From: a virus
DNA length: 64,000 nucleotides
Strand: one strand, 5' to 3'
IMG/VR virus record: IMGVR_UViG_2843860951_000002
Location: 16,041 to 80,040 of that record
The translations under genes and the position numbers were made by a program. The notes below the pieces were generated by a model. It searched no databases, was not told the DNA's origin, and saw nothing but the letters and a program-made list of their open reading frames with translations. Shown here piece by piece: positions 4,391 through 29,199 of this stretch (position 1 is the first letter of the stretch; every line of letters starts with the position of its first letter).

Positions 4391-4519
4391 CAATCATCAC
4401 CAGCCCGGAACACCCGGCACCCGTGGCGTTGAAAGTGGATCTGGCATAGCATTACTTGCCCGCATTTCGCGGTCATAATCCTTCCTAACCACACTTTGCA
4501 CATGCCCGGCGATCTGCTT
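4391..4519. repeat. 129-bp perfect direct repeat, copy 1 (3' end of helper TMP gene)
   Basis: Base-by-base identical to 21256-21384. Confidence 0.97.
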
Positions 4520-8038: not shown

Positions 8039-8545
8039 TCACTCATCCCCTTCCCTCTGGTTGGGGAGAGGTAGCCCACACATCGCACGAACAGCAAGCG
8101 CACCAATACGCCGTACGATCTTGTGCTCATTCCTAAAGGCCGCAACGGAAAGCTCTGGGCGTGGCGGCTGATAGTTTTTCTGCTCCATGCGGCCGAGTTC
8201 AAACACTACGGCCTTGATATCGTCAGAACCGATGGAAGCATGCACCACAGACCCGGCCTCGGATATACGCACGCCGTAGCTCTCACGCATATCGCCGGTT
8301 CGCAACCCCGGATCATCCGGCGTAAATCCCAACCTGATACGCTCATCTATGGTGCTGTCTGCCAGTGGAGCAGTTGGAAGGCCGGGTTCAGGCCCATCCA
8401 AGTAATGTCCGATCTGCTCTTTCGTGTCGCGTTCAATAAGGGTGGCGCCTTCTTCCACGCCACGATGAACGGCCACATCAACCGCAAGCCCCCTTGCCGC
8501 CAGATGGCTTATGAACCCCTCAATGGTCTTAAACTGCCGCGCCAT
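8039..8545 (-). CDS. HK97 gp10-like tail component
   Basis: PLADSTI..R...G...D.PGLRTG.MR.S, A...ELG....PPRP; homologous to satellite 23355-23816. Confidence 0.7.
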   Translation of the reverse strand: MARQFKTIEGFISHLAARGLAVDVAVHRGVEEGATLIERDTKEQIGHYLDGPEPGLPTAPLADSTIDERIRLGFTPDDPGLRTGDMRESYGVRISEAGSVVHASIGSDDIKAVVFELGRMEQKNYQPPRPELSVAAFRNEHKIVRRIGALAVRAMCGLPLPNQREGDE

Positions 8546-8723
8546 CTGGCACCTCAATGAACATCATGGCATCCCAATCGAACGTTTCTCCACGCATCTC
8601 GCGTAGAGCTACGCAGGCGGCCAACCTGCGCTTATCGCTCCATTTCCCGCAAACTTCCCACGGCACCCCATTCTGAACGAGAAACAGCATTTCCCTAAAA
8701 ATGGGGTGCTCGCTCAGTTTTTT
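8529..8723 (-). CDS. Tail chaperone -1 frameshift extension (gpGT-like), missing from the ORF track
   Basis: In-frame slippery heptamer A AAA AAC (8717-8723) just before the chaperone stop; -1 frame reads LSEHPIFREMLFLVQNGVPWEVCGKWSDKRRLAACVALREMRGETFDW..AV*. Confidence 0.8.
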   Translation of the reverse strand, partial: KKLSEHPIFREMLFLVQNGVPWEVCGKWSDKRRLAACVALREMRGETFDWDAMMFIEVPDGAAV

Positions 8724-9037
8724 ACTGCGGCCTTTTCATCGGCTGAACTGGCATCTTTCTTGCCGTAAAAAATCGGCATAAGCGCAGCTACGCCATCATT
8801 GCCGATATCGTTGGCCAGTTCCTTCACTTCGTCTTTCGTGATCGGCATCTGCACAGGCACACCATCAATAGCCGTCACAGAGCAGACCATCTGCGCATAC
8901 CCCAGCCACGCACCGGCAGACTGTGAACTCATGGCAGAGCCTGCAGCCTCAATCAGATCCAGCATACTGCCCGGATCAATTTCTTTCAGGGAAAGAGTTT
9001 TACCTGCTGCCGTTTTAACTTCTGCTGGAATGCTCAT
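8714..9037 (-). CDS. Tail assembly chaperone (gpG-like)
   Basis: 107 aa between tube and TMP, ends at a slippery site; homologous to 23994-24425. Confidence 0.8.
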   Translation of the reverse strand: MSIPAEVKTAAGKTLSLKEIDPGSMLDLIEAAGSAMSSQSAGAWLGYAQMVCSVTAIDGVPVQMPITKDEVKELANDIGNDGVAALMPIFYGKKDASSADEKAAVKN

Positions 9038-13097: not shown

Positions 13098-13303
13098 TTC
13101 TTCTTCCGAATAACCTTGTTGGCTGCCGCTTTGATCTTGGCTGCAGTGGAGGCCGAAAGGTTGCCCTTTTTCACTTCCTGCGTAGCTCTTGCTTTGGCGT
13201 TGGCCGCACGCGCTTTCGTATCAATCGGATAACGCCGAGAACCGGGCAAAGCGAATGCACTTTTAGGCAGCCGGTTGCGGCGTGCTGTTGTCAGCTTGGC
13301 CAT
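13094..13303 (-). CDS. Small, highly basic putative DNA-binding protein
   Basis: MAKLTTARRNRLPKSAFALPGSRRYPIDTKARAANAKARA; GGAGG RBS before 13303. Confidence 0.7.
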   Translation of the reverse strand: MAKLTTARRNRLPKSAFALPGSRRYPIDTKARAANAKARATQEVKKGNLSASTAAKIKAAANKVIRKKK

Positions 13304-14048: not shown

Positions 14049-14269
14049 TATGCTGTCTCCAGCGGCGCTCCACGAGAACGCAGCAGTTCTATTTCTGCAG
14101 GGTTAGTCACAACCTCCCCTGCGCTCCATTCGAACCGGCCACGATTGAATTCTTCCTCAATGAAGCCAAAAGGCCGCAGAAGCCGCACTGCCTGCACAGG
14201 AGCGGGTTTTTTCTCGTCCTGCGCAGGAGGAACGGCTGGTTTAGCCGCCCCGCGCCGCGCTTGGCTCAT
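14048..14269 (-). CDS. Small hypothetical protein after the capsid gene
   Basis: 73 aa, coupled to the capsid stop codon. Confidence 0.6.
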   Translation of the reverse strand: MSQARRGAAKPAVPPAQDEKKPAPVQAVRLLRPFGFIEEEFNRGRFEWSAGEVVTNPAEIELLRSRGAPLETA

Positions 14270-15348
14270 CAGGCTGTAGCGCCCAGAGATGTTGCGCCAA
14301 GGCTTTCAATCACCACGCCACGCTTAAGGTAGCTGTTGGTCGCCGTGGGAATGATCGTTGTATTGGCCGTCAGGTCAGTTGGCAGAGCAAAGCCACCAAT
14401 CCAAGACCAAGACTGCGCAATGATCTGCCCCAGACGATCCAGCGGCGGACGGGTAACCATCAGCACATCATCAATATGCTCCACCTCACCCGGAAGATCG
14501 GCATATGCCTGCGCCATGTTGGCATAGTCGCCCTCGATCAGCGCACCCGCACCACAGATGATGGCACGATGAATCTGGCCCTGCCCCAGAGACGCCTGCT
14601 GCGGGGCTTCCGTGGTCGGGATAAACCGGATGCCCAGCAGTTCGAACACCTGACCTGTCCGGTATTCATCAGACCCATACTGACCGCGATACAGCAGCTT
14701 GAAATCAGGATCGCGGAATAGGCCGAGAAGCTGGGAGTTGTCGAGAAAGCAGTTGAAGCAACCACCAATCGTCGGAACGTTGTTGTTGCGCAACGCAGCA
14801 ACTGCCCCCAGCATGGTGTCGATGGTCAGGTAATCACCTGTCACCACATTGCCATTGGCGTCTTTGGAGCCCGATGCCAGAAGTCCTGCTGTTGTGGCAC
14901 GACCATTCGGGCGCAGAACCAGAGGTGCAGTTGCGGCAACCACCGCGGCATTCAATGCCGCATCAGTTGTCGCAACATTCTCAGAGAACGTCAGCGTGCC
15001 AGAAATACCGCCCGGTGCATTGCTGACGTTTGTCGCATCCGCAGCAACATTAACCAGCGTATAAGAGCCGGAACCAACGGTAACAGTCATGCCACTGGTT
15101 GCAGAAACCGGGATAACCTGCCCCATGCTATTCATGACGCGCTGGAAACCACGGATATCATCAACCTGAACGGTTGTGCCTGCGGCTGCCAGTGCTGTGG
15201 TTACGCGGGTGTTCCCGCCCAGATACCCACCAACACCACCAATAGCGCCACCGAACAAGGAATTACGCGCCAAACGGTCAAGAGACTGACGGGCGTTAAT
15301 ACCCAGAACCTGTGCATTTTCGACAAACTGGTTCGCAATTCCGACACC
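14269..15348 (-). pseudogene. Major capsid protein, 3' part (codons 106-464 of the restored gene)
   Basis: GVGIANQF..NA..LG..ARQSLD.LARN.LF..GGNTRV continues in frame from ..DLNQVTE (28885-29199) once the insert is removed. Confidence 0.88.
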
Positions 15349-15356
15349 TTCCGTGA
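15344..15356. repeat. Satellite att site, integrase side
   Basis: ACACCTTCCGTGA vs ACACATTCCGTGA at 28880-28892; identical core TTCCGTGA at 15349-15356. Confidence 0.88.
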
Positions 15357-15375
15357 GGGTGTTGTATCCTATATA

Positions 15376-15388
15376 AATCAATAACTTA
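15376..15388 (+). promoter_or_regulatory. IHF-consensus site in the left att arm
   Basis: AATCAATAACTTA matches WATCAANNNNTTR exactly; inverted copy at 28842-28854. Confidence 0.75.
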
Positions 15389-15415
15389 TGTATAAATGTC
15401 GCGGATTTGTTGCAC

Positions 15416-16621
15416 TCAGTCAGTCTCCGGCAGCATCAATGATGCAATCTTTTGTATTTCCGCTTGTTGCTTGTGCTCCGTAAGTAGTGGGTGAGCATAA
15501 CGCTGAAGGGTCATATCAAAAGATGCATGCCCTAGTAATTTAGCTACATCTGTAACTGGCATTCCTCCACCAACCATAGCACTGGCAGCAAAATGCCTTA
15601 GGGCATGGAAATGATAACTAGGTCCTTTTTTCTCGGTCTCTAATCCAGCCCTGATTAAAAGATTACGCCATACTTCATGCATGTCAGCACGTGTGATCCC
15701 TTTGCTTCCTGTTTTGTCATGCATTTTGGAACGTTGCGTCTTGCAGAACAGCAAATTTCGATTATCTGGGATTAGGTGATGATCTAACCAATCAGTAAAT
15801 AACGCGCGTACATGTTGTGGCATTGGCACATCTCTAAATCCGGCGCGAGTTTTGGGGCCCTTTAGTTCATTCAGCGAAGTAAGAGAGTTTCTGATGCGTA
15901 AAATTCCATTCTGTAAATCAACATTTTGAACAGTAATCCCTGATATCTCACCAAATCTGAGTCCACAAAACACAGCGGAATGCACAAAAATCCGTAATTT
16001 CAGCCATGAACGAATAGACACATTTGGCTGCCGTATATCTACTGTCTTTATAAGCTGTTGTATTTGTTCAATAGAAAAAGTCGCGATCTTGTCAGATTCA
16101 CCGCCACGCCAATCTTTCAGCACTGCATCGAAGGGCTGCCCTTTGGCATAACCTCGTTTGATACCGAACTCGCAAACTTGCCTAGCCGTATTTAAGACTT
16201 CGCGTATCGTAACTTTTTTATATCCAGCTTTTGCCATTTTTCTTGCAATGGCATCACCTTCGTTAAAACCTAGATCTTTTTGCAAAATATCGCCGACTAC
16301 GGGGAGTATATGATTACGAATATACCCCTCACGTCCACGTCTATACAGTTCGCCAACACCGTGCCCTGCCTGTGAGCGAAGAATTGCATCGTCTATGAAT
16401 TCTTGAGCAACTCGCTCCATAGTGGCACTTTTCTTATCTGAAACATGCCGCCCCTCTAAAACATCGACCACAATAGACGATCGAAAGAGATCAGCTTCCT
16501 TCTTGAGTTTGAACGATTTTTGCGTTCTATTCCCCATCTCATCGGTATAATCCACTACCCATGCACTACGATTTTTTCCGCCCGTAACCCAATTACGCTT
16601 TCTAACTGATGCTCGTGCCAC
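15416..16621 (-). CDS. int: Tyrosine integrase of the satellite
   Basis: N-terminal arm-binding region; catalytic set GLRFGE, PKT, HALRH, LLGH, QRY present. Confidence 0.95.
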   Translation of the reverse strand: MARASVRKRNWVTGGKNRSAWVVDYTDEMGNRTQKSFKLKKEADLFRSSIVVDVLEGRHVSDKKSATMERVAQEFIDDAILRSQAGHGVGELYRRGREGYIRNHILPVVGDILQKDLGFNEGDAIARKMAKAGYKKVTIREVLNTARQVCEFGIKRGYAKGQPFDAVLKDWRGGESDKIATFSIEQIQQLIKTVDIRQPNVSIRSWLKLRIFVHSAVFCGLRFGEISGITVQNVDLQNGILRIRNSLTSLNELKGPKTRAGFRDVPMPQHVRALFTDWLDHHLIPDNRNLLFCKTQRSKMHDKTGSKGITRADMHEVWRNLLIRAGLETEKKGPSYHFHALRHFAASAMVGGGMPVTDVAKLLGHASFDMTLQRYAHPLLTEHKQQAEIQKIASLMLPETD

Positions 16622-16626
16622 AACTT

Positions 16627-16920
16627 TTATCCTATCCTATTCATTGAATGCTGCCCCTGAGGAACTGCGTTAGACAGTTCCTCATCTATCGACGCACATC
16701 GGCGTTCCATTTCACCGGATAGCCATTCCAGAGCCATGCCCACAGCACTCATGTTGGGGCCGCTTTCTTCCGAACCAGTAAGCATGCCATTGCTCATGGC
16801 CTGAAGGCATATCCCGATGCAGGACAATTCGCTGGTTGCGTCCTGAATGACGCTCAGTCGGTCGGGTGTTGCCACGGGGCTTTTGCGCCGTTGTGGTGCA
16901 GAAGTGTGTTTCTGGCTCAT
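16627..16920 (-). CDS. Small helical-hairpin protein (paralog 4)
   Basis: ALEWLSGEMERRCASI motif; coupled ORF chain upstream of int. Confidence 0.6.
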   Translation of the reverse strand: MSQKHTSAPQRRKSPVATPDRLSVIQDATSELSCIGICLQAMSNGMLTGSEESGPNMSAVGMALEWLSGEMERRCASIDEELSNAVPQGQHSMNRIG

Positions 16921-17177
16921 GCCTTTACCCCTGTAAGTGCCAGAACATCCCTCGCCAGACTGGCTTCCATACTTCTGTCATCTTCGGACACAAGAAGAAC
17001 CAGACGGGCCTTACATTGCATATCCTTGATGTTCCGGGCTTTGGTGTTCGCAACAGCGCGACAGGCCTTCACGAAGCGACGGCTTTCCGTTTCTCCTTCC
17101 TTGAAATTATGAGCTTTCCAGCTACGGCGATCAGAATTGATGGCGGCGACCGTGGCGGCTTGTATTGGAGTGGTCAT
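16917..17177 (-). CDS. Small hypothetical protein
   Basis: Start MTTPIQ, overlapping neighbours at both ends. Confidence 0.6.
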   Translation of the reverse strand: MTTPIQAATVAAINSDRRSWKAHNFKEGETESRRFVKACRAVANTKARNIKDMQCKARLVLLVSEDDRSMEASLARDVLALTGVKA

Positions 17178-17440
17178 GCCACTTCCTCCGGCAACATCCA
17201 GCCTGGCGCATCTTTCACGCCTGTATGCGCTGCCAGCAGATCCAGATGATCCTGCAACCGGTGGCTCAACCAATGGAGCGCTTCGGGTTCGGTGATGTCG
17301 CATTCATCACAGCTCCATCCGGCTGTCACTTCCACTATAATGGCGGCCATCATCCGTGCGTCACGCAAAATGCAGCTTTGGATACGCATGTTTTTGAAGG
17401 TTTCCTGTTCGAAACCTGTGAGAGACATCTGGTTGCTCAT
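17174..17440 (-). CDS. Small helical-hairpin protein (paralog 3)
   Basis: ALHWLSHRLQDHLDLL motif. Confidence 0.6.
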   Translation of the reverse strand: MSNQMSLTGFEQETFKNMRIQSCILRDARMMAAIIVEVTAGWSCDECDITEPEALHWLSHRLQDHLDLLAAHTGVKDAPGWMLPEEVA

Positions 17441-17676
17441 TTCTGCGGCCTCCACGTCTCGCCGCCAGTAACTTCCTGCAGACGACTTAGCGTTGAGCAG
17501 AGTTCATCTGCCAGCCAGTGCCGGACTTCGGGAAAGACCACTTCATTTTCTGGATGGCTCAAGTCATGGATAGCGCGTGCAATTTGCTCGGCCTTATGAA
17601 GCAAAAGGTGCGGTTTCTTATAGTTGGCAAGATGATCGCGTTCGGCCTCTGTCATGGCTGTAGGTGTGTTGCTCAT
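17437..17676 (-). CDS. Small helical-hairpin protein (paralog 2)
   Basis: VRHWLADELCSTLSRL motif. Confidence 0.6.
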   Translation of the reverse strand: MSNTPTAMTEAERDHLANYKKPHLLLHKAEQIARAIHDLSHPENEVVFPEVRHWLADELCSTLSRLQEVTGGETWRPQK

Positions 17677-17882
17677 TATCGGGCACCTCGCGCCTTAAGG
17701 TCTTCCAGAATGGCGCCATCAAGTTCGTGGTGCAGACGCTCCACCCATTTGTGCAGCCATTCTAATGGCGGACGCTCTCCGCAAGCTTGTAAGCCATCCA
17801 ACACGTCAGACAGGCCCGCCAGCTCACACATGACGCTATGAGCTTTATGATTGAGAGAATTATCCGTTGGCATCTTGCTCAT
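17676..17882 (-). CDS. Small helical-hairpin protein (paralog 1)
   Basis: PLEWLHKWVERLHHEL motif. Confidence 0.6.
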   Translation of the reverse strand: MSKMPTDNSLNHKAHSVMCELAGLSDVLDGLQACGERPPLEWLHKWVERLHHELDGAILEDLKARGAR

Positions 17883-18058
17883 CGTACAGCCTCCAGCTTC
17901 TGGGCTGCGTGGCCAGTTACGACAGGATCAGGCATTGCTGCCCATATCAGGGCTAGCACAGCAAGAACTGGGAAAATCAAAGGTGGTAAATTTCCCCACA
18001 CAGGGGAAAAAATGAATGTACAGGCGCGAACCCGTACGCTATGGGCGTGTTTAGCCAT
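17879..18058 (-). CDS. 59-aa single-TM protein, missing from the ORF track
   Basis: MAKHAHSVRVRACTFIFSPVWGNLPPLIFPVLAVLALIWAAMPDPVVTGHAAQKLEAVR; GAGG RBS; ATGA overlap with 17882. Confidence 0.55.
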   Translation of the reverse strand: MAKHAHSVRVRACTFIFSPVWGNLPPLIFPVLAVLALIWAAMPDPVVTGHAAQKLEAVR

Positions 18059-18140
18059 TAGCTTGTGTCCTCAAGTTTGTGGTCAGGTCTGCTCTGGAAA
18101 TCTCACCTTCCAAAGCAGACCGTTTGGCTTTCCAACCAAA

Positions 18141-18159
18141 GTCAGTTATAAAGACTGAC
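18141..18159. promoter_or_regulatory. Candidate operator of the satellite XRE regulator
   Basis: GTCAGT-N7-ACTGAC inverted repeat in the divergent promoter region. Confidence 0.5.
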
Positions 18160-18186
18160 ATTGTATAAAGTCAAGTGTGAGAACTA

Positions 18187-18426
18187 ATGTCAGACATAAC
18201 ATCTGAGCAATGCCTCGGAGCCCGAGCAATGCTGCGTATGACACGCAATGAATTGGCAGAGGCATCAGAAGTAGCCGTTGCTACATTATCTGACTTTGAA
18301 TCTGGAAAGCGATCACCTCACCCCCGCACCCTTGGCGCCATTCGCTCCGCCTTAGAAGCCGCGGGTATTGAATTCATTACTAAAAATGACAAGGGAGTTG
18401 GATTACTATTGAAGTATAAAAAATAA
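18187..18426 (+). CDS. XRE-family HTH regulator (satellite repressor candidate)
   Basis: Q..GARAML.MTR.ELAEASEVAVATLSDFESGKRSP; divergent from the int-linked operon. Confidence 0.9.
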   Translation: MSDITSEQCLGARAMLRMTRNELAEASEVAVATLSDFESGKRSPHPRTLGAIRSALEAAGIEFITKNDKGVGLLLKYKK

Positions 18427-18530
18427 TACTTGTTTTTAATAAGATATATTCAGAATTTATCTATGGTTATAATTTTAAAACCGTTTTTAATCTCAATTGA
18501 TATAGACACAAAAATTTAGGATGCACTTTT

Positions 18531-19028
18531 ATGAACTTACGTCAGAAAATAAACGCCCAAGCCACACAAAAGGACGCAGAAGAGGCGTTTGAAAATAGTA
18601 GACCGGAAAGAGAACAGGCAATCCGTTCTCAAATGGATTTCTTAATAAAAAAAATTGAATCATTTTTAACTGAATATATTAGAGAAGGGCACGTAAAAAT
18701 AGATTTCTCTACTTCAATTTATAAAATGGATGGCACAGAACATACTGCGATGCCTTCGTTAATAATTAATTTCCCAAAGGAAGAACTTATTCTGGTGTTG
18801 GATAATGAGCACGGTGCTGCCTCATACAGACTCTCTGCAACACTACGCCACCAACCGTTCACGAGAAACCCGCGAAAAGTGAAATTTCTTTTCAAAAACA
18901 ATTCGTGGCTCCTAAACGGAAAGCTTGTTCCTTCTGATGGCGGCTATGCTTTTTTTCAGGACAATCACAACACTGTAGAGATTACCCCAGACAGCCTAAA
19001 TTGCGCTATTGCATCCATTCTAGCGTGA
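18531..19028 (+). CDS. AT-rich hypothetical cargo protein
   Basis: 165 aa, opposite strand to the structural genes, AT-rich. Confidence 0.65.
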   Translation: MNLRQKINAQATQKDAEEAFENSRPEREQAIRSQMDFLIKKIESFLTEYIREGHVKIDFSTSIYKMDGTEHTAMPSLIINFPKEELILVLDNEHGAASYRLSATLRHQPFTRNPRKVKFLFKNNSWLLNGKLVPSDGGYAFFQDNHNTVEITPDSLNCAIASILA

Positions 19029-19076
19029 AAACATAAATATGTGACGAGATTACCTATCTCGTCACATAACCCCAAT

Positions 19077-20420
19077 TTACCGAGCGAGGCTAAAGCGTTT
19101 GCTTGAAACCCAGCGAGCAGGCACAGGCCGGCTTTCAACCATAAGTTCCGTGAGCCCCCAAACCAAAGCGTCCATTCTGTCTGGGGAATTTCCTGATCCA
19201 GGCACCCATTCCACCATTTGATCTTCAAGGGTGGGAAAAGCGCCGACATGATGCACTTTTTCCTGCTCGTATAGTGCCATAATAGGTTCTGCCCTAACGA
19301 GCTTCCCCCGACTGGCATGCACGACTTTTACAGGTACAGTGCCGTCTTCACTGTGAATTGTTGCTGTAACCATCTCGCCGCCGAAATTGTTTTCAGCCAC
19401 AATTTTATCAGCGTTCCAGTGTTTATATGCCCGAACTGCTTGGCGAGCCCACCCGCCAGGGCTGTAACGGCCAGACAAATCCTCCAGAATGTATCCTTTG
19501 TTATCGGTACCGTAGGCGCAGACGATAATGCCAGTTTCATCAGACCTTTCATGAGATGATCCTGCTGGATCTATAGCAATAACGATTCGCCTGAATATCC
19601 GGTCTGATGATGGTTCAACACGAAGCGCATCCAGCATTTCACGAGTCCAGAGAGTTCCGCTTCCATCATCCAGTAATTCACCATCAAGTTCTTGCCTGCC
19701 CAACGTTGTGCCGCCGTATTTTTCCATAAGCTGGGCTAGAGCTGTACGGCTCAAATTCGCTGCATTATCCTGCGTCCGTGAACGTGTCACGACCGTCAAA
19801 TCACTCTTGGCCAGAGAACGAATAAGAGGAATCGGCTTTGGCGTAGTGGAGCACACAATTCTCGGTGCATCTCCCAGAGGACCATCTACGCGGATTGCCA
19901 TACTGAGCACGTCCCAAGCGTACTCACATTTTCCCCACGTTACGATTTCGTCGCACCATGCGCCATCAAGATTCAGGCCGCGTAATCGTTCCGGTTCTTC
20001 TGCTGAACATAGATGGCAAAGGGCTCCGTTTGGATACAACAATTTCCCTGTGGACGGCTCATAAGTAGGCCTGAACTCAGGCGGAGATATCGCCAGCATT
20101 CCACTAGGGCCTTCAATTTGAACACGGCGAAGGGCATTGGCCGTGGGGCCAACGATTGCCATTTCCTTCCGGCGCCCGCTTTCAATCTCACCACGAACCC
20201 ATTCAGCAGCGGTTCTCGTTTTCCCGCTGCCTCGTCCGCCGAGCAAGAGCCAGACAAACCAGTCACCTGCCGGTGGCAACTGGTCTGGACGAGCCCAGAA
20301 AGACCAGACGTAATGAAGCGCAGCCAGTTCTTCGGATGAAAGTGAACTGAGAACAGCACGGCGTTCATCAGGTGGCAGATCTGCCACCCGTGAAGCTAAA
20401 GATATTTTCAGATCGTCCAA
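19077..20420 (-). CDS. terL: Terminase large subunit of the satellite
   Basis: WARPDQLPP..W.VWLLLGGRGSGKT (Walker A), AWCDEI (Walker B), IAIDPA nuclease motif, DRMDALVW. Confidence 0.93.
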   Translation of the reverse strand: MDDLKISLASRVADLPPDERRAVLSSLSSEELAALHYVWSFWARPDQLPPAGDWFVWLLLGGRGSGKTRTAAEWVRGEIESGRRKEMAIVGPTANALRRVQIEGPSGMLAISPPEFRPTYEPSTGKLLYPNGALCHLCSAEEPERLRGLNLDGAWCDEIVTWGKCEYAWDVLSMAIRVDGPLGDAPRIVCSTTPKPIPLIRSLAKSDLTVVTRSRTQDNAANLSRTALAQLMEKYGGTTLGRQELDGELLDDGSGTLWTREMLDALRVEPSSDRIFRRIVIAIDPAGSSHERSDETGIIVCAYGTDNKGYILEDLSGRYSPGGWARQAVRAYKHWNADKIVAENNFGGEMVTATIHSEDGTVPVKVVHASRGKLVRAEPIMALYEQEKVHHVGAFPTLEDQMVEWVPGSGNSPDRMDALVWGLTELMVESRPVPARWVSSKRFSLAR

Positions 20421-20920
20421 GCGTCTCTCCGGCGTTCAATCTCTGCCATGATTTCTTTTTTGCGAGGCATCACTACTCGCCTGTCTTGTTCTGTCAGTTT
20501 GGCTGCTGGAAACAGAATAAGATTTCCAGGGTGAATAACTTCAAACGAAATTCCCTTGGCCATCAGCCTTTCGACTAGATCAGAAATACTTTCATGAGAT
20601 TGCTGCCGTTGGTCAGGGCTTGCATTCGTAAAGGTTGCATTCGCAAATACGATTGCAGCTAATTCGTTCTCAGGAGCATTTCGTACAGAAATAAAGAATA
20701 CTTCTGCTTCTTTCATTTCTTTATCATATTGCTCTTTAGCCATTTTTGCCCGAACAGCATCCCCTGAATGCTGCTCACGATAATAAATTCCCATCCTTTG
20801 CCGGAGAAGATTAAAACGTGGATCCAATACACGAAAGAGGTCGTGTCCACGTGCGCGCGCCTCTTTGTAGGCGATTGCTACCCTATCTTCGATTGAGAGA
20901 TTCGCATTTAGCTGCGTCAT
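20408..20920 (-). CDS. Hypothetical helical protein
   Basis: 170 aa, overlaps both neighbours. Confidence 0.6.
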   Translation of the reverse strand: MTQLNANLSIEDRVAIAYKEARARGHDLFRVLDPRFNLLRQRMGIYYREQHSGDAVRAKMAKEQYDKEMKEAEVFFISVRNAPENELAAIVFANATFTNASPDQRQQSHESISDLVERLMAKGISFEVIHPGNLILFPAAKLTEQDRRVVMPRKKEIMAEIERRRDAWTI

Positions 20921-21192
20921 TTTTTGCTACCCCATTTTTTTGCCCATTTTTGCAAAGACCGCGAATTAATGCTGTCGCGCATATTGCTCTGGATATCAGC
21001 GTTGATGCGCTTCAGTTGTTTTTTGCATTCTTCTTCGGATGCCATGCGTGCGTTGAATGTAAACGCATCTGGATACCTGTCCTGCAAACAAGAAACTGCT
21101 TGTTCAGGAGAGAGATTTTCATCAGCAATTTTTAGTAAAGTCATATCGTTCAGGCCCGCTTTGATAGCGGCCTGCTCTAATTTTGTGCACAT
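20917..21192 (-). CDS. Mini scaffold-like protein (homolog of the helper scaffold C-terminal domain)
   Basis: LEQAAIKAGLND..LLKIAD..AV..LQDRYPDAF-TFNARMASEEE vs helper AKALATKLGAVSPDDVVRLID..VMDAAKESRGYLF..PFNARKATPEE. Confidence 0.6.
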   Translation of the reverse strand: MCTKLEQAAIKAGLNDMTLLKIADENLSPEQAVSCLQDRYPDAFTFNARMASEEECKKQLKRINADIQSNMRDSINSRSLQKWAKKWGSKK

Positions 21193-21255
21193 GATTTTCT
21201 CTTATAAGTAAGATTATTACTCAAGGAATAGGCTTAATTAAAAGCTTACCCCTGC

Positions 21256-21384
21256 CAATCATCACCAGCCCGGAACACCCGGCACCCGTGGCGTTGAAAG
21301 TGGATCTGGCATAGCATTACTTGCCCGCATTTCGCGGTCATAATCCTTCCTAACCACACTTTGCACATGCCCGGCGATCTGCTT
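21256..21384. repeat. 129-bp perfect direct repeat, copy 2 (3' end of satellite TMP gene)
   Basis: Identical to 4391-4519; similarity extends 9 bp further with two synonymous changes. Confidence 0.97.
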
Positions 21385-23349
21385 GCCGTCTAGATTCACA
21401 GTTACATTTATAGGTGCAGTTCCAAATAACCCTCCTGAGTATTTACCTAAAAACCCATCAATACTTTTTAATGTTTCATTGTTTTTTTCTAAGCTAGCTT
21501 GGAGTTTGTTCGCCCAAGGTGAGAGCACATCCCACGCAGCAAGGCCTGCAGCTAGCGGCATAAATCCTTTAGACGCTCCTTTAGTAACTGTGCCGAATTT
21601 CGACATTCCACTCGGAAGGTATTTTTCAAGAGCGCCACCTACCCAATGGAAGAACCCCACAGCTAAGGCTGTAACGCCTAGATCTACGCCGGCTGTTGCT
21701 AGAGGGGGCACAACATTGGGGTGTTTTTCCGCCTGCCGAGCAGTAAAATTCAGAGTATTGGTTAAAAGTCCCAGTGCGGCCAAACCATCTTTGAAGGGTT
21801 TATCTCCTAAGACAGTTGTGAGGTTTTTAATCGAAGCCGTAAACGCATCAATTTGAACAGACGGAGAATTCTTCATAATACCAACAATATCAGCATGAGA
21901 AAGCTTGCCAGTAGCTGAAGAATCTCGCTCAGCAAGAAGGTAAGTTCGCAGAGTCTCAATCATACTCACGCCTCCTGGAATGCGAGAAGCAACCTGAGAA
22001 AGGCCTTTTGCTTCCATAGCTAATTTCATTTCCGGCGAAGCATCAGTAAATTTTTTCCCATACACCTTAGCCATATATTTATCGATTTTAGGTTTGAGCG
22101 TTTTCTCAATAAATTCATGCGGCGAGAAAATAATCTTAGCCATGTCGTCTGGATCAAGTGCCCCATCCAACATCATGAACTGGCCCATGCCCATTTTCCG
22201 CAAATATTTGTTCGATTTAGCATCACCACCACCATGGATGATTCCCATATCGATCAACATATTTGCTCCTGCCTCTGACATTCTCCCCGCCATAAATTGC
22301 TGAGAAAACCCCTGAAGGCCGGTTCCTGCCCTTGCGGTCCCCATCGACTGAAGTAGTGGAATAAACCATGGCAAATCCTCAGCTTTAAGGGTTGCACCCG
22401 CTGCGCCCGCTGAACGACTAAATTGCAGATATTTCTTGAAATCAACATTTCCCAAAGTGGCAACTTCAGCAGCTAATAACAGAGTACCTAGATTCCGGGC
22501 GCCCTCCACATCCACTTCTTGTTTGCCGGTTTTTTTATCTGTTTTAACTAGAGCTCCACGAAATTCGGCTAGCTGCATAAGGGACTCAAGCTGTGCTGCA
22601 TAATTACCAGACTCAGGATGGTAAGCCCCTGCGGCAATGCCAATTGGTAGGAATGTCGGTAACAAAGTACGAGCTTCAGAAGCACTTTGAGTTATCCGTT
22701 TAAGAACAGAGTATACTTCCAAGTTCCCCATGACATCTGAACCGGCAACTTTCTTTTGAAGGTCCCGAGCCAAAACAATCGCTTTGTCAGCATCCTTAGT
22801 ATCTCCGCCATCATTAGCAATAAGGCGCTGCCGCATTTGCTGAAGATCCATAGCTGGCCTCAAAGCAGTCTTCGCCATATCTCCATACATCTGAAGATCA
22901 AACCCAACTGCCATGGCTTTATTAGCCGCATGTCCAAAGGAGGTCTCTGGCCTCCCAGGGACCCTTCTTCCCTCAGGCTCGGGAGTTAAAGGGGGTTTGG
23001 GCGAAGGGAGAGGAACCTCACTCGGCACCGACACCTTAGGATTTATAATCTGTACTTTCCGCAATTCCTCAAGAGCCTTACGAGCAGAACCCGCAGAAGA
23101 CGTAATATTATCCAGAGACGCCGACATTGTTCTTGTCTGGCTATCAATTCCTCCCAGATTGATACCTTCAATTTCTTTTAACTGCCTGCCAAGGCGAGAA
23201 AGATTGGCACGCCCTAAGGCCTCGAGAAGACTCCTAAGATCATTCCCTGCATCTAATGTCATGCGGAATTGACGCGCGATCTCTTTCAGTAACGCCGGCG
23301 CATTTGAAACAAGTTTATACTCGCCTTGGACTGCATAGCTTGTCGTCAT
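21262..23349 (-). CDS. Tail tape measure protein of the satellite, 695 aa
   Basis: Follows chaperones and a gp10-like gene; N-terminus MTTSYAVQGEYKLV resembles helper MTVEAYKIGVSLV; last 43 aa identical to the helper TMP. Confidence 0.85.
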   Translation of the reverse strand: MTTSYAVQGEYKLVSNAPALLKEIARQFRMTLDAGNDLRSLLEALGRANLSRLGRQLKEIEGINLGGIDSQTRTMSASLDNITSSAGSARKALEELRKVQIINPKVSVPSEVPLPSPKPPLTPEPEGRRVPGRPETSFGHAANKAMAVGFDLQMYGDMAKTALRPAMDLQQMRQRLIANDGGDTKDADKAIVLARDLQKKVAGSDVMGNLEVYSVLKRITQSASEARTLLPTFLPIGIAAGAYHPESGNYAAQLESLMQLAEFRGALVKTDKKTGKQEVDVEGARNLGTLLLAAEVATLGNVDFKKYLQFSRSAGAAGATLKAEDLPWFIPLLQSMGTARAGTGLQGFSQQFMAGRMSEAGANMLIDMGIIHGGGDAKSNKYLRKMGMGQFMMLDGALDPDDMAKIIFSPHEFIEKTLKPKIDKYMAKVYGKKFTDASPEMKLAMEAKGLSQVASRIPGGVSMIETLRTYLLAERDSSATGKLSHADIVGIMKNSPSVQIDAFTASIKNLTTVLGDKPFKDGLAALGLLTNTLNFTARQAEKHPNVVPPLATAGVDLGVTALAVGFFHWVGGALEKYLPSGMSKFGTVTKGASKGFMPLAAGLAAWDVLSPWANKLQASLEKNNETLKSIDGFLGKYSGGLFGTAPINVTVNLDGKQIAGHVQSVVRKDYDREMRASNAMPDPLSTPRVPGVPGW

Positions 23350-23354
23350 TATTG

Positions 23355-23816
23355 TTACTCTTTCAGGCCAGCTATTTCTGTGATTTTTTTTGCAATTTTC
23401 TTTGTAATACTGTGTTCTTTGCGGAATAACGCTGTCGCGATAACTGGACGCGGAGGCTGTTTCATCGTTCCTTCTTCAAACCATTTTGCCACCACATCGG
23501 GATTCCCAATAATCACCTTTGACCCATCTTCAATATAAGATGAATAAAGCGCTCGCATCTCACCTGTTCGCAAGCCCGGTTCATTTTCGGAAAACCCGCG
23601 GGCTAACCTATCCTGTTTGGTACTGATAGCCAGTTCATCCCAAGGGGGAAGGTGACCCATATTTGCCCTTTGGTAGGTACCTACTTCTTCTTTGCAATCA
23701 GCAACAAGCAATATGGCGGCTTTTTCCAAGGCAATCAGTTGCGCTCGTTCTACCACCTCTGGAATTTTTTCCATTTGAGACAAAAAACTTTGTTCACTAA
23801 GCGGATTAGCCGCCAT
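23355..23816 (-). CDS. HK97 gp10-like tail component (satellite copy)
   Basis: ELA.STK..RLARGFSENEPGLRTGEMR, FEEGT.KQPPRP; homologous to 8039-8545; start at MAANP mirrors the helper overlap. Confidence 0.72.
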   Translation of the reverse strand: MAANPLSEQSFLSQMEKIPEVVERAQLIALEKAAILLVADCKEEVGTYQRANMGHLPPWDELAISTKQDRLARGFSENEPGLRTGEMRALYSSYIEDGSKVIIGNPDVVAKWFEEGTMKQPPRPVIATALFRKEHSITKKIAKKITEIAGLKE

Positions 23817-24006
23817 CACTATTGCGCCTATGAAAGCGCCCCTCTCCCAAACTCCATTCGATTTCACCACATGAATCAAGTTCTTTGTTCATAATGCATG
23901 CAGCTGAAATCATCTCGTCTGACCATGTATCAAGAACATGGATGGGGATCCCATTCCGGGCGAGATAAACCAACGCCCGGAAGTTAGGATCCCTTAGGAA
24001 TTTCCC
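23806..24006 (-). CDS. Satellite tail chaperone -1 frameshift extension, missing from the ORF track
   Basis: Slippery G GGA AAT (24000-24006); -1 frame GKFLRDPNFRALVYLARNGIPIHVLDTWSDEMISAACIMNKELDSCGEIEW..DGG* is homologous to the helper extension. Confidence 0.8.
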   Translation of the reverse strand, partial: GKFLRDPNFRALVYLARNGIPIHVLDTWSDEMISAACIMNKELDSCGEIEWSLGEGRFHRRNSDGG

Positions 24007-24425
24007 AGCTTTTCTTCTGGAGCCTCCTGCGTCTTGGCTTGACCTCCGGCTATATCTTCAACAAGCGCTCGCATGTAGGCTTGCTGTCCTATATTCCCGA
24101 TCTTATCCAAAAGATCGCAAATTTCACTTTTGCTCTCTGGGGTCATTTCAGGCTCGCCATCAAGGTCAACAACTGAAACCGCCATCATGACTGCAAAGCT
24201 CACATCGTCATTCTGGATGTTACCCCACATGTCTAAGGCCCTCACCCGTAAACTTAACGGGATAGATTTAAGGAATTGGATCTCCCTTCCTTTTTTATCC
24301 TCTTCAAATTTAACCGTAATACAAGAAGGTTTTTTTCCTCCAATTTTATACTTTGCAGGCCCTTCTTCCCACGAAAAGCCAGCGATTTTAGGGAGTTTAT
24401 CTTTGGAGGTCTTTTCTTTTGTCAT
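23994..24425 (-). CDS. Tail assembly chaperone (satellite copy)
   Basis: MMAVSVVDLDGEPEMTPESKSEICDLLDKIGNIG vs helper MVCSVTAIDGVPVQMPITKDEVKELANDIGNDG. Confidence 0.78.
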   Translation of the reverse strand: MTKEKTSKDKLPKIAGFSWEEGPAKYKIGGKKPSCITVKFEEDKKGREIQFLKSIPLSLRVRALDMWGNIQNDDVSFAVMMAVSVVDLDGEPEMTPESKSEICDLLDKIGNIGQQAYMRALVEDIAGGQAKTQEAPEEKLGNS

Positions 24426-24625
24426 TTGCGGGGCCCTGCTTTATCAGAATGATTATTAAAAATATTACATGACGGGGAAACTTCGTAAGCAGCTCCATAT
24501 GGGATAGGGATACCAGATATCCGGGCGCTGTTATTCTGGCACCCAATCACGATGTATGCCGCGCTACGGGCTGGCTCAATTGGCTCTGCTGTAGCAATAG
24601 TTTCAAGAGTGTCTCGTGAAAACAT
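24422..24625 (-). CDS. Small hypothetical protein
   Basis: GGAGG RBS, ATGA coupling to the chaperone gene. Confidence 0.55.
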   Translation of the reverse strand: MFSRDTLETIATAEPIEPARSAAYIVIGCQNNSARISGIPIPYGAAYEVSPSCNIFNNHSDKAGPRK

Positions 24626-24642
24626 TGTCCCTCCGTGGACAT

Positions 24643-24666
24643 AAAAAAACCCGCTGTAAAGCGGGA
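24643..24666 (-). terminator. Intrinsic terminator upstream of the satellite tail module
   Basis: CCCGC-TTTACA-GCGGG followed by a T7 run on the minus strand. Confidence 0.65.
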
Positions 24667-25095
24667 TTAAAAACTAACTTTTGCATCTGTTCGTTCAGGC
24701 GGATCTAGTAAATCCGCATAACAAAAAGTGCCCGGCAATATGGTGAAGGGGCCGCCAACATACGTGATTCCTTCTCCGCCTTTCAGGTCTGTTAAGTAGG
24801 CGACCTGCCCAGGGGGAATTGTCTTATTCCCTGTGCCAGTTTCAAAGCCATTTACTGGTGGAGATAGCTGAAGCTGCGGCGCTTCTGGATTTCCGGGGGT
24901 GTAAAATAGTGTCAGATTACCTTTACCACCATTACGGATTGCCATGACTGCGGCATCCTGTAGCTGATCAGGTACCGTGATAGTAGCTGTCCCGCAGATG
25001 GGAGCAGCGGGCACAGCCATCGCGCCACTTACGCCGCCTGGTGCATCTGGATAAGCACTTGGATTTTGTGATGTCGTGATAAACAATCTTTTCAT
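24667..25095 (-). CDS. Hypothetical Pro/Gly-rich, beta-rich protein
   Basis: Start MKRLF with AAGGA RBS; no family recognised. Confidence 0.6.
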   Translation of the reverse strand: MKRLFITTSQNPSAYPDAPGGVSGAMAVPAAPICGTATITVPDQLQDAAVMAIRNGGKGNLTLFYTPGNPEAPQLQLSPPVNGFETGTGNKTIPPGQVAYLTDLKGGEGITYVGGPFTILPGTFCYADLLDPPERTDAKVSF

Positions 25096-25106
25096 ATCGT
25101 TTCCTT

Positions 25107-25769
25107 TTATTCGCTGGACAAAACTCCAGATACCGCTTTGGCTGTCCACTTCCCTCCACGGGGAGTGCGGACAGATCGCTGGTCAAGTTCGTTCGCGATA
25201 GTTTGCAAACTCATTCCTTGGCCGCGCAATTCCTTGATCAGAGGGCGAACAGAAGCCCGGAACTCTTCTTTTTTCCGTCTCACAGCTGCTGTGCCGGCTT
25301 TCTGATCCACTTTTGGGCCGCCTCTATAACCACCTAGCTTAACGCCACGTGCCTTGGCAGCAGCCAACGCCTCTTTCGTGCGCTGGGATATGGCTTCCCG
25401 TTCTTGTTGGGCCACAAGCGCCATAATCCCTATAGTCATCTGATTGGCGCCGGGCATATCTGCGGCGACGAAATTGATGCCTGCGTCTTTTAAGCCGATA
25501 AGGAATGCAGCGTTACGAGAAAGCCGGTCGATTTTGGCTATGACAAGCGTTGCACCTGTCAGACGACATTCTTTCATGGCCAATTCTAATTGAGGACGGG
25601 CATCATTCTTCCCAGTTTCAATTTCAGTGAATTCGGCCAGCAATTCCCAATCACCGCCATTTAGGAAATTTCGGACAGTGTGCTGCTGTGCCTCTATTCC
25701 AAGACCAGATTTTCCTTGTTTTTCAGTGCTTACGCGGTAGTAGGCGACAAATTTTCCGTTCATGTTCAA
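25107..25769 (-). CDS. Serine recombinase (resolvase/invertase family)
   Basis: FVAYYRVSTEKQ, DRLSR, ERE.IS.RTK.AL..AKARG, C-terminal helical DNA-binding region. Confidence 0.93.
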   Translation of the reverse strand: MNMNGKFVAYYRVSTEKQGKSGLGIEAQQHTVRNFLNGGDWELLAEFTEIETGKNDARPQLELAMKECRLTGATLVIAKIDRLSRNAAFLIGLKDAGINFVAADMPGANQMTIGIMALVAQQEREAISQRTKEALAAAKARGVKLGGYRGGPKVDQKAGTAAVRRKKEEFRASVRPLIKELRGQGMSLQTIANELDQRSVRTPRGGKWTAKAVSGVLSSE

Positions 25770-25798
25770 ATCCAGACGACGAAGGTTGTCTGATTTTG

Positions 25799-26227
25799 CT
25801 ACGGACTTTTCTCACTATTTGCAATCGTTTTTTTTGTCTCATTTTCTGGCTCAAGATCAATTACTGGCTTCTGTTGCGGTTTGAATGCTTCCAGCATCTG
25901 ACTGATCTTTTCTACCATGTGTGTACCAGAGACTTCCTGCTGACCATCCTTTGGCGTTGCATCCGCTGTAACCTGCATGGAAAGCCTTGGCCGACAATAT
26001 GGAAGTGCTGCTTGATAAGCTTTCACGCGCAATTCTAAGGGCGTTTCTGGACTGTCAGCAATTTCCAGCAGCGAAAGAAGCGGATCTCGGCCTTCTTCCA
26101 TAATCTGCACCAATGTCTGCCGCGCTTTAACCATAACTTTTTGTGGTCGTTTGCTCTGCCACTCAGCACCTGATTTACGGCCAGCGCCTTTACGCTTTCC
26201 TCCTGAGCCGCTCGAGGTTCCTGGCAT
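25799..26227 (-). CDS. terS: Putative terminase small subunit of the satellite
   Basis: GGKRKGAGRK..., DPL..LLEIA....PLELRVKAYQAALPYCRPRL, a motif I associate with small packaging subunits. Confidence 0.55.
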   Translation of the reverse strand: MPGTSSGSGGKRKGAGRKSGAEWQSKRPQKVMVKARQTLVQIMEEGRDPLLSLLEIADSPETPLELRVKAYQAALPYCRPRLSMQVTADATPKDGQQEVSGTHMVEKISQMLEAFKPQQKPVIDLEPENETKKTIANSEKSP

Positions 26228-26417
26228 TCAATACTCCTATTTCCCCCGATCTTGGGGTTTCACGCACGCGCTGCGCGCAGAAGCCAGAATGCTCCTACGC
26301 CAACGGGCGGGGCAAGCGGGGCTATGCACAGCCTCGCGCCTGATTTGATTATAACGGGGCTGGCAGTTGGCAACGCATGCCCAATTCACCTATGCAGAAT
26401 TCCTAAACACTGGAAAC

Positions 26418-26535
26418 TTTGCACGGAACTGCACGGAACCCGCACGGGTGAGTGATCCGCACGCACGGATCATCTCCCCTATAGGGTTCCGAGATCCATG
26501 CGCGCGCGGATTTGCACGGAACCTGCACAGATCAT
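26418..26535. repeat. Candidate satellite replication origin
   Basis: GCACGG at 26421, 26431, 26442, 26463 and 26514; hairpin TGATCCG-N6-CGGATCA; palindrome CCCTATAGGG; directly after the helicase gene. Confidence 0.6.
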
Positions 26536-27740
26536 TCCTCCCCTCCTCCATCAGTCCAAACTACACAGGAAGGCTTTCCATCGGGGGTTCGTATTCCCTG
26601 AGCAGTACCTCGGTTATCACGCCTAAATGTCGCCACCTCATATCCCTCGTGGAGTAGATCGTTCAGAACCTTCTTCTGCCCATCAGCCGTGCTTACGCCA
26701 CAGTCAGTCAAAAGCTTCCTGATAGACCGTTGATCTTTTGACAATTTAGGGCTCCAAGGGCCTACAGGACTTCCTTTCGCGACCCCTGCTTCAATAAGGT
26801 TCATTTGCTCCAATGAGACGCTATCCTGCGGAGGCATCCATGGCTTCATGACTGCCACTCGGTCACCATTATTTAGTTCGTAAGACTGCCGTTCAAACCA
26901 TTCTTCCTTGCCGATCGGAGCCGCATTGATCTTGGCCCCATCGACGCGAGAGAAGAACCGCCTATGGTCAGCCGGTAACCCAAAGTTTTGTGCTTCTGCT
27001 TCTGACATAACACTAACCGTCAACACTACGCGGGCGGCACCAACAACGGCAGATGCACCTCGGGACACGTCAGGATCTCCTGGAATGGCAGCTACTCCTT
27101 TCCGTGTATGATGCAAGAGAACGACGGCCATATCATACCGCACAGCCAAGGCACGGAAATGAGCCATTACCTTGCGAACTGCAGTATTGTCGTTTTCTTC
27201 TGCTTCATGCAATTCAACCAACGGATCCAGCATCAACACATCGGGCCTGCGCTTTTGGATTTCAGCTTCCATTTGTTTCATTGCCGGAGTGTCAAACATC
27301 TCTTTGCTATCTTTCTCCTGCTCAAGCAACGTTCCGATAGTCTCCGTGCCTACGCGGGCAACATACCCATTCAAATCTGCCGGGCACTTACCCATGAACC
27401 GCAAAGCAGCAGAGAACCGCCGACGCTGTTCGTCACGATCATCCTCAACATTGTAAGTCATGACCTTCATGCGCTTATCTGGGGTCAATCGCCCATAGCT
27501 CTCTCCTAGTGCAAGAGACGCTGCCCATCCCACCATTAGGCTTGACTTCCCCGAAGCAGGTGCACCCACCACAACAGTGACAGCACCACGCAGGAGGATC
27601 CCAGAAGCTACCCAAGGGCGGGAGGGAATATCGTTTTCGTCCCAGTTCTGATCATCTATTACAAGAGGGAGAACAGGCGTATGCTGCTTATTCTGCGCTT
27701 CAATTACGCTTTGGTGGACAATTTCTCCGATTTCATTCAT
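26532..27740 (-). CDS. RepA-like replicative helicase (AAA_25 type)
   Basis: Walker A GAPASGKS, NVED, LMLDPL, LLHHTRKG, SRGASAVVGAAR. Confidence 0.88.
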   Translation of the reverse strand: MNEIGEIVHQSVIEAQNKQHTPVLPLVIDDQNWDENDIPSRPWVASGILLRGAVTVVVGAPASGKSSLMVGWAASLALGESYGRLTPDKRMKVMTYNVEDDRDEQRRRFSAALRFMGKCPADLNGYVARVGTETIGTLLEQEKDSKEMFDTPAMKQMEAEIQKRRPDVLMLDPLVELHEAEENDNTAVRKVMAHFRALAVRYDMAVVLLHHTRKGVAAIPGDPDVSRGASAVVGAARVVLTVSVMSEAEAQNFGLPADHRRFFSRVDGAKINAAPIGKEEWFERQSYELNNGDRVAVMKPWMPPQDSVSLEQMNLIEAGVAKGSPVGPWSPKLSKDQRSIRKLLTDCGVSTADGQKKVLNDLLHEGYEVATFRRDNRGTAQGIRTPDGKPSCVVWTDGGGEE

Positions 27741-28519
27741 CCACCCATCCTTGCCCTCAACGCAGATGCGATGGTCTTTTCAACTTCAGTTGCACTTAGG
27801 CCTGCTTCTAACCCAGCAGCCGCCATGACAACTGCAATTTCATTGGCTGATAGATAACCTTCGGCAATGAACCTTCCTAATGCAAAGGTTTCGGCATTAA
27901 GAGTTTGATTTCTTAACCCATTGCCTGCGGTAGCAACCTGCCGAGCAGCTGAACGAAGAGCAGATTGGACATAGCGATTTGCGTTTTCTATGCCGTGTTG
28001 CAATCTTTCAAGTTTAGGTTTGGGAGGTGGCGAAGGTGTTGCAAGTTCTACTAGCCATGCCGGCCATTGCTGGATGCGAGCACGCTCAACTATCTCTAGC
28101 CCAGCCGCAGGCCACCAAATGATATATCCTCCATCAGCCCTAACATCCACGCCCGGCGCTATCCGGCCGGCACTGTTCCTCATGCCTTCTCGGTGCCTGA
28201 ACAATAAATGAAGCCCCCCAGAACGGGTGCGATTAATCCGGGTGCCGGTCAGTCGGGCGCAGTGTTCTTGGTAAAAATCGTCACCACCCTTTCCCCAGTC
28301 CAGATCAAGTGCATCAAACCCAGACACAGAACCTGTAACTGCTCCAATAAGAGCCCCTGGATGAGCGCGCCAGAGCATGGCAACAGTTTCCGGGCATTTG
28401 CTCGACAATTTAGTCCATTTGCAAGTAGGTCGCTTCTGCTCATCACAGGGGAATACCTGTACCCCGCAGCGCGCTAATTGTTGGGCATAGACCACAACAG
28501 AACCATTTGCCGTAGTCAT
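27737..28519 (-). CDS. Bifunctional primase/polymerase (Prim-Pol) with primase C-terminal region
   Basis: VFPC..KRP, ALDLD, RTRSGGLHLLF, GVDVRADGGYI, GLRNQTLN..F.LGR; start MTTANG by ATGA overlap. Confidence 0.88.
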   Translation of the reverse strand: MTTANGSVVVYAQQLARCGVQVFPCDEQKRPTCKWTKLSSKCPETVAMLWRAHPGALIGAVTGSVSGFDALDLDWGKGGDDFYQEHCARLTGTRINRTRSGGLHLLFRHREGMRNSAGRIAPGVDVRADGGYIIWWPAAGLEIVERARIQQWPAWLVELATPSPPPKPKLERLQHGIENANRYVQSALRSAARQVATAGNGLRNQTLNAETFALGRFIAEGYLSANEIAVVMAAAGLEAGLSATEVEKTIASALRARMGG

Positions 28520-28716
28520 GACTGCCCCGCTTCGCAGTTTTTCAACCACTGGCGCAGCGTTTCAGGTCGCGCACAAATAGTCTTCCCAATACGAAAGCAT
28601 GGGATACGCCCCTGCTCATTCCAATAGGCAACTTGACGAGGAGATGTGCCGAGGAACTCCGCAATCGCTCTCGTCCCTGCTAGAATTTCGACAGAGAAAG
28701 TAACACTATTTTTCAT
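28516..28716 (-). CDS. AlpA/excisionase-like winged-HTH protein
   Basis: G.RAIAEFLG.SPRQV.YW...GRIP.FRIGKTICAR...L.QWL; first gene inside the right att. Confidence 0.8.
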   Translation of the reverse strand: MKNSVTFSVEILAGTRAIAEFLGTSPRQVAYWNEQGRIPCFRIGKTICARPETLRQWLKNCEAGQS

Positions 28717-28841
28717 GTCGCAGTTTGCCTGATATTTGTCGCATGCATGCAGCACGGAAATGCCGTGCATTGTCGTAACTCCTTGGTTTTCATCGTTCTT
28801 ATCGAACAGAGCGAATAGGCAAGAAATCTCACGACATTTTT

Positions 28842-28854
28842 TAAGTTATTGATT
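28842..28854 (-). promoter_or_regulatory. IHF-consensus site in the right att arm
   Basis: TAAGTTATTGATT, reverse complement of 15376-15388. Confidence 0.75.
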
Positions 28855-28879
28855 TTGTTATAATTATTGAAGGATATAA

Positions 28880-28892
28880 ACACATTCCGTGA
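28880..28892. repeat. Satellite att site, xis side
   Basis: ACACATTCCGTGA; core TTCCGTGA at 28885-28892. Confidence 0.88.
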
Positions 28893-29199
28893 CCTGATTG
28901 AGGTCCATCGTGTTACCGAACTGCGCAATTTCCAGCGTGTACTGTTCCACAGACCATTCCGTGGGAGACATGCCGTTATCGAAATTGCTGTTGGCCGCGG
29001 GATTGAGCGGAGTTTCAACCGGAGCCAGCAAACCACGACGGGTGTCCGTAATGGTCTGACCGATACGAGCCGGAAATTCCATGCGGTCAGCAACGGAACG
29101 AAAGCCAAGTTTGGATTCAAGGCTGGCTTCAAACGCACGGGCCAGAAAGCCCTGCTGGATAATGGGTTGTAGTGCTGCGGGGAAATCGGCAATTGCCAT
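28885..29199 (-). pseudogene. Major capsid protein, 5' part (codons 1-105)
   Basis: MAIADFPAALQPIIQQGFL.R.F...L..KLGFR..ADR.EF..IG.TIT.TR; follows the scaffold gene; frame diverts into element sequence (CVYILQ*) right after the att core. Confidence 0.9.

Follow-up and report, generated by a model that had tools for sequence, protein, structure and literature searches.

A helper-type tail at the end of a satellite tape measure gene, acquired by short recombination patches in Acetobacter prophages and possibly an adaptor to the helper baseplate

Background

Satellites that encode a tape measure protein have already been described, in the PLEs of Vibrio cholerae and in the mycobacterial EPIPs. 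PLEs encode a tail assembly chaperone of their own as well as a tape measure protein that is shorter than that of the phage ICP1 and has diverged from it to about 20% identity; in satellite virions it takes the place of the helper's protein (10.1101/2025.01.29.635557, PMC12987554). They also encode a baseplate hub, BhuB, and build chimeric tails with ICP1; how the PLE tape measure protein is fitted, and how it is selected, are stated as unknown (10.1101/2025.01.29.635557). EPIPs of Mycolicibacterium are reported to have a tape measure gene and tail lengths unlike the helper's (PMC12822802). This work concerns a satellite-like element that sits inside a Mu-like prophage of Acetobacter, and a tract of 129 nucleotides (nt) that its tape measure gene shares with the tape measure gene of the prophage, its helper. 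The DNA analysed is a stretch of 64,000 nt, called the window below, which is bases 16041-80040 of an 81-kb provirus record (IMG/VR IMGVR_UViG_2843860951_000002) with relatives from Acetobacter and Komagataeibacter.

The Acetobacter element resembles the PLEs in encoding its own chaperone and its own tape measure protein, both diverged from the helper's. The PLEs bring BhuB, whereas no hub-like or spike-like gene was found among the open reading frames (ORFs) or Pfam matches of the Acetobacter element, a search that did not take in every small ORF; it carries an exact DNA copy of the helper tail. The setting is also different, with Acetobacteraceae as hosts, a temperate Mu-like prophage as helper and integration in that helper's capsid gene. 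EPIPs are similar in that the satellite has its own tape measure gene, but they are siphovirus-type, have a serine integrase and their own capsid genes, and the part of the account cited here reports no helper-matched tail segment (PMC12822802).

Phage Mu offers the structural comparison. The only ordered residues of its tape measure protein gp42 in the virion are 674-690, which form a trimer bound by the hub gp44 and the spike gp45, and the spike binds weakly without gp42 (PMC11915804). The helper has sheath, probable tube, chaperone and tape measure genes in that order and a Mu-like baseplate gene order, and the swapped segment is the extreme C-terminus, the part that is ordered in Mu. The helper differs from Mu in that about 6 kb of accessory genes split its tape measure gene from the baseplate genes, and the likeness to gp42 rests on order and position, not on sequence. 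The mosaicism of temperate phages is a further precedent: there too an unrelated stretch switches abruptly to an identical one inside a gene, and helpers swap bodies while keeping the tail. The Acetobacter exchange differs in being between parasite and helper, in being confined to 129 bp (or 67 bp in a second species) and in recurring at the same functional segment. We found no description of tail-only overwriting in the literature. What appears to be new is not a satellite with a tape measure gene, but the overwriting of the tail alone, seen repeatedly in pairs of independent origin and in a satellite that is without a hub gene and resides inside the helper capsid gene.

Results

The tract is a recombination patch

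The two copies of the tract (Table 1) match exactly over 129 nt, and their starts lie 16,865 nt apart. Each lies at the 3' end of a tape measure gene on the minus strand, one gene encoding the helper protein P0001 and the other the satellite protein P0002. Each copy holds the last 40 codons (KQIAG...PGVPGW, the same residues in both), the tandem stops TGA TGA and 3 nt more. A preliminary description of this DNA, made by a model from the letters alone, had claimed exactly this match, and direct comparison bears it out. Its arithmetic for a deletion by recombination between the copies, 16,865 bp, is also right; such a deletion is without evident function. It had further described identity as stopping abruptly upstream. 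The first 23 nt 5' of the tract are 17/23 identical and span the codons of a shared LDG motif; the sequences farther out are unrelated. Tract and upstream zone together make up repeat family D1, 152 nt at 96%. On the 3' side of both genes the similarity ceases immediately.

The tract stands alone within the element. When the 13.5-kb element was compared by blastn with the remaining 67.7 kb of the provirus, the tract was the sole significant match (E 1.6e-66; the runner-up had 0.06). Without the tail, P0001 and P0002 are 23% identical (E 2e-5), and a global alignment of the bodies gives 20%. Chance is excluded as the origin of the tract. It is a recombination patch: an identical tract with unrelated flanks on both sides, for which relatives make it possible to distinguish the donor lineage from the recipient one. 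Promoter-like and terminator-like sites were looked for in the tract and none was found. A role of the repeat as a target of the element's resolvase was considered and rejected, since satellites with completely different tails have resolvases that are 87% conserved.

A repeat of this kind could in principle come from assembly or polishing, or could be the plain conservation of a universally constrained motif, and the preliminary description had itself raised both doubts. We consider either explanation extremely improbable. No points in support were found, though a 129-bp repeat does break short-read unitigs, as is seen in the metagenome contigs. L055, an independent Logan contig of 15.2 kb, runs through helper terminase, portal, scaffold and the 5' part of the capsid gene into the same satellite, 98.8% identical, and its tape measure gene crosses the tract in satellite context and ends in the same 40-residue tail. 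In contigs from four fermentation metagenomes, each from a different study, satellite-context pieces span both junctions of the tract, and helper-context pieces run into it in three of the four runs. A universal constraint is also hard to square with its distribution: close helper alleles vary at up to 7 synonymous sites, and the tract is missing from more distant helpers and from the satellite's relatives.

The tail moved from helper to satellite

The relatives of the two proteins reveal which way the tail was transferred. P0009-P0012, helper-type proteins with an overall identity of 86-94%, have exactly this tail at their end. The same 129 nt are found unchanged in the proviruses L028, L029 and L031 and in contig L056, and L025 has 122 of the 129. 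When the window is compared helper to helper with L028, L029 and L031, homology goes on beyond the stop codons. The scaffold-capsid region is uninterrupted in L025, L028 and L029, so these helpers are without the satellite. On the other side, P0003-P0006, which are closest to the satellite protein at 46-52% identity along the full length, end in another type of tail (...TGTAPD...PGR.IG.). The body of the satellite protein is 53-54% identical to satellite-type proteins versus 20% to the helper, and its last 25 residues are 100% identical to the helper versus 28-36% to satellite-type proteins. The tail is thus present in satellite-free helpers and not in the satellite-type relatives, and must therefore be native to the helper lineage and imported into the satellite. 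On these sequence comparisons we regard the direction, from helper to satellite, as settled. The recent recombination proposed in the preliminary description is supported, and it now has a direction.

The exchange happened independently in a second species

In Acetobacter ghanensis GCA_050572975.1 an element of this family occupies the same site in the capsid gene and has the same architecture. The body of its helper tape measure protein (L015 12374-14314, 646 aa) is 22% identical to that of its satellite (L011 10001-12061), and the two genes have one tract in common, 67 nt at 98.5%, covering the last 23 codons but one. Against 28.8 kb of helper sequence the satellite matches only in this tract and in the 19-nt att repeat. 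The A. ghanensis tail is of the other type, so this was an independent event. The preliminary description had proposed comparing satellite and helper 3' ends across strains for co-variation, and here they do co-vary: the tract matches the co-resident helper at 66/67 positions versus 62/67 for the related helper L014. A third satellite, L012, has a tail that comes closest to a helper-type protein, with 80% identity to L024 versus 68% to its nearest body relative.

The independent copy of the window satellite in L055 suggests that the exchange did not happen only once. The two copies differ at 5/129 sites in the tract versus 16/2321 in what is left of the gene plus its immediate downstream sequence (Fisher p 0.004). 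Each of the five tract changes is synonymous, and four match states in the helper alleles L025 or L057. The seven differences of L025 are synonymous as well; the amino acids of the tail are strictly conserved. The simplest reading is at least one later exchange after the two satellite copies split, and since the second copy carries these five synonymous changes, exchange is probably recurrent. An exact search for the L055 tract allele among viral and metagenome contigs found nothing. The helper genes P0010 and P0013 were set aside as candidates for the helper of L055 as they come from samples other than its own.

One further pair was considered and rejected. The supposed satellite in Komagataeibacter oboediens LMG 18849 (L005, a 13,146-bp contig) is in fact part of a phage, with a sheath gene, and no satellite; it and the other K. 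oboediens prophage have tails of one type, with no identical tract. In L005 (3120-8463) a satellite-type tape measure gene lies behind a helper-like sheath gene in what is apparently a phage tail module, so the cassette lineage is present in complete phages too.

Helper phages keep the tail and swap the body

The same division between body and tail is found among the helpers. We used rank correlation across 17 helper-type phages, which is descriptive and whose pairs are not independent: tail identity tracks a tube-initiator-like 307-aa protein and the sheath, tube, spike-like and hub-position proteins (rho 0.53-0.66), whereas its correlation with the tape measure body (0.36) and with the 172-aa gene (0.20) is weak. 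The mutual correlations of body, N-terminus, chaperone and 172-aa gene are 0.54-0.80. The cassette of the satellite is therefore the unit that also moves between phages, with the tail outside of it. Individual pairs agree. L014 and L015 have bodies 28% identical and are 93% identical over the 3' 168 nt. L041 and L049 are 96% identical in tail and hub and 35% in the body. Between L029 and the window helper, identity is 100% inside the tract and 77% over the 200 nt that precede it. Judging from these sequences, helper phages swap tape measure bodies and keep the tail.

The helper and its tape measure gene

The helper is a Mu-like myovirus prophage of Acetobacter. Its major head gene (14269-15381) precedes the tail genes, which run from sheath (9469-10956) and probable tube (9034-9465) through chaperone and 172-aa gene to the tape measure gene. 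The baseplate genes are beyond the window; in the relative L003 they have a Mu-like order with a baseplate J domain and a spike-like OB protein, the latter with a Pfam score just under the curated cut-off. The candidate hub and spike proteins of L003 have 398 aa (11933-13129) and 216 aa (11290-11940). We identify the tape measure gene from its place between chaperone genes and baseplate genes (as in L003), and the satellite repeats the order of chaperone, 174-aa gene and tape measure gene. The lengths of 773 and 695 aa are compatible with tape measure proteins, and among the 34 homologues of P0001 in Acetobacteraceae prophages there is one whose source labels it a tape measure domain protein. 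Pfam gave no match for P0001 or P0002 and PHROG only weak matches of unknown function. Neither gene matched anything in a phage collection by megablast, and E. coli genomes held no match to the satellite gene.

The tape measure gene of this phage family is flanked by variable accessory genes and lies about 6-8 kb from the baseplate genes. The accessory genes include P63C-domain, BrnT/BrnA, HicA/HicB, Arc-like and BstA-like genes, an endonuclease and a weak, sub-threshold Rha-like match. In L029 (10001-12342) the helper tape measure gene is apparently frameshifted; the reading frame closes at 685 aa, leaving the tail in a different one. Elsewhere in the window a 61-nt direct repeat (50819-50879 and 52281-52341) has 92% identity and a spacing of 1,462 nt.

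The satellite-like element

The intact capsid gene of L025 (464 aa) aligns to the window in two pieces, 29199-28880 and 15354-14269, with an 11-nt overlap. The element, at about 15355-28879, is therefore inserted inside the helper capsid gene. The same insertion site is used in A. ghanensis (L011 4336-4354, 19-nt repeat) and in L055 (3940-4275). Pfam identifies an integrase (15416-16621), a large terminase (19077-20420), a resolvase (25107-25769), a helicase (26532-27740) and a primase-polymerase (27737-28549). No major virion gene (capsid, portal, tube, sheath, baseplate) was found in the 13.5 kb among ORFs and Pfam matches. We call the element phage satellite-like on this gene content: integrase, primase-polymerase, helicase and large terminase without a major virion gene. 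The tape measure cassette has the same gene order as in the helper; the satellite chaperone is 26% identical to its helper counterpart (E 7e-7) and the 174-aa gene is 36% identical to the helper's 172-aa gene (E 2e-25).

The resolvase is a small serine recombinase that stands beside a tyrosine integrase in each satellite (window 25107-25769; L011 7520-8176; L012 3556-4212), with the 87% conservation given above. A hunt for further satellites based on the helicase mostly returned other elements without a tape measure gene (L051-L054). One of these, L052 1208-16733 from A. cerevisiae GCA_024158285.1, has the same backbone of primase-polymerase, helicase, resolvase and terminase without the tape measure cassette, and is possibly a sister family of the satellites.

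Table 1. Positions of the tract, the element and the tape measure genes (window coordinates unless a contig is named)
Feature	Position	Strand	Remarks
Satellite copy of the tract	21256..21384	-	exact match to 4391-4519; independent assemblies also have it in satellite context
Helper copy of the tract (donor lineage)	4391..4519	-	129 nt at 100% in L028, L029, L031, L056; 122/129 in L025
Upstream crossover zone in the satellite gene (holds the LDG codons)	21385..21407	-	17/23 identical to 4520-4542
Satellite tape measure gene, P0002, 695 aa	21262..23349	-	body at 53-54% identity to proteins of the P0003-P0005 type
Satellite chaperone (23994-24425) and 174-aa gene (23355-23879)	23355..24425	-	one cassette with the tape measure gene
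Satellite-like element, 13.5 kb	15355..28879	-	bounds from the intact capsid gene of L025
Helper major capsid gene, 3' part	14269..15354	-	5' part at 28880-29199
Helper tape measure gene, P0001, 773 aa	4397..6718	-	behind sheath, probable tube and chaperone
Helper counterparts of the satellite cassette: chaperone (8714-9037) and 172-aa gene (8039-8557)	8039..9037	-	by homology and order
Accessory-gene zones	1-4337, 6802-7866; L013 15206-20672; L014 7447-13279		

Discussion

We believe the following scenario best fits these data. A short recombination patch from a helper-type prophage replaced the 3' end of the satellite tape measure gene. The resulting protein retains its diverged body, which comes together with its own chaperone and 174-aa partner, and ends in the helper's C-terminal tail. 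Since the element is without a hub or spike gene, its tape measure protein would have to dock on the helper baseplate. If the Acetobacter phage works as Mu does, the tail would dock there on hub and spike, and the satellite protein would nucleate a chimeric and probably shorter tail; from the difference of 78 residues the predicted shortening is about 12 nm. Chimeric tails would then actually be made, matching of the tail may be required for transfer of the satellite, and the recombinants with a matched tail would be those that spread. That the tail is an adaptive fit to the helper baseplate is the best reading of the evidence, and one we think likely.

One could argue instead that the patch is a neutral by-product, made by occasional recombination in a shared cell and then drifted to fixation or hitch-hiked without any effect on fitness. 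Helper phages are indeed highly mosaic in the tape measure gene, where their breakpoint lies some 40 bp upstream of that in the satellite, and a short residual similarity exists at the LDG codons. The ancestral satellite tail, at 28-36% identity to the helper tail, would have offered little homology to seed an exchange, however, and two species show independent replacement of this one small region with no other exchange in 13.5 kb. All 12 differences in L025 and L055 are synonymous. We find this explanation unlikely. A different objection accepts the selection and disputes the partner: the tail could be matched to a helper factor that acts on the C-terminus, or to a partner in the host envelope or at entry that serves in DNA injection, which includes evading an exclusion protein or complying with it. 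Directly downstream of the helper gene there is indeed a 379-aa gene without assigned function (3198-4337), and Mu tape measure proteins are ejected into the envelope (PMC11915804). The tail type, though, follows the tail and baseplate backbone across species and not the variable genes adjoining the tape measure gene, and those neighbours differ among L025, L028, L056 and L057 despite the same or a near-identical tail. A partner outside the baseplate is thus quite unlikely in our opinion.

Several observations count against a fit of the tail to the baseplate of the helper in residence, and they should be stated together. At least four other helper genomes share the tract allele of the window, so the resident prophage cannot be singled out as the donor. 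The correlations among helpers come from pairs that are not independent, and the genes flanking the tape measure gene on either side correlate with the tail about equally. Accessory genes, about 6 kb of them, separate the helper tape measure gene from the baseplate genes. Finally, in metagenome run X15 the satellite variant of L055 has a depth similar to that of a helper contig which is of the P0014-like type upstream of the tail core, and the variant probably sits with that helper. The P0014-like tail has the last 23 or so of 26 residues in common with the satellite variant and ends WGH, not GW. The probable partner in X15 thus matches incompletely, and perfect matching of the tail is not obligatory.

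Conclusions

Chimeric-tail satellites with their own tape measure gene have been described only recently. In the locus analysed here, the piece that makes such a protein fit would be a single short and movable segment, for which two species show independent replacement. We would go one step further, tentatively and at slightly less than even confidence. Satellites of this Acetobacteraceae family may follow changes in their helpers through repeated replacement of no more than the last 20-40 tape measure codons, the tail being the adaptor that chooses which helper baseplate can be used. If this is true, the short tail would be the specificity determinant when chimeric tails are assembled as well as a sequence signature that pairs satellites with helpers. 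It would offer a possible route to predicting helper-satellite pairs from the genomes of vinegar and food-fermentation bacteria.
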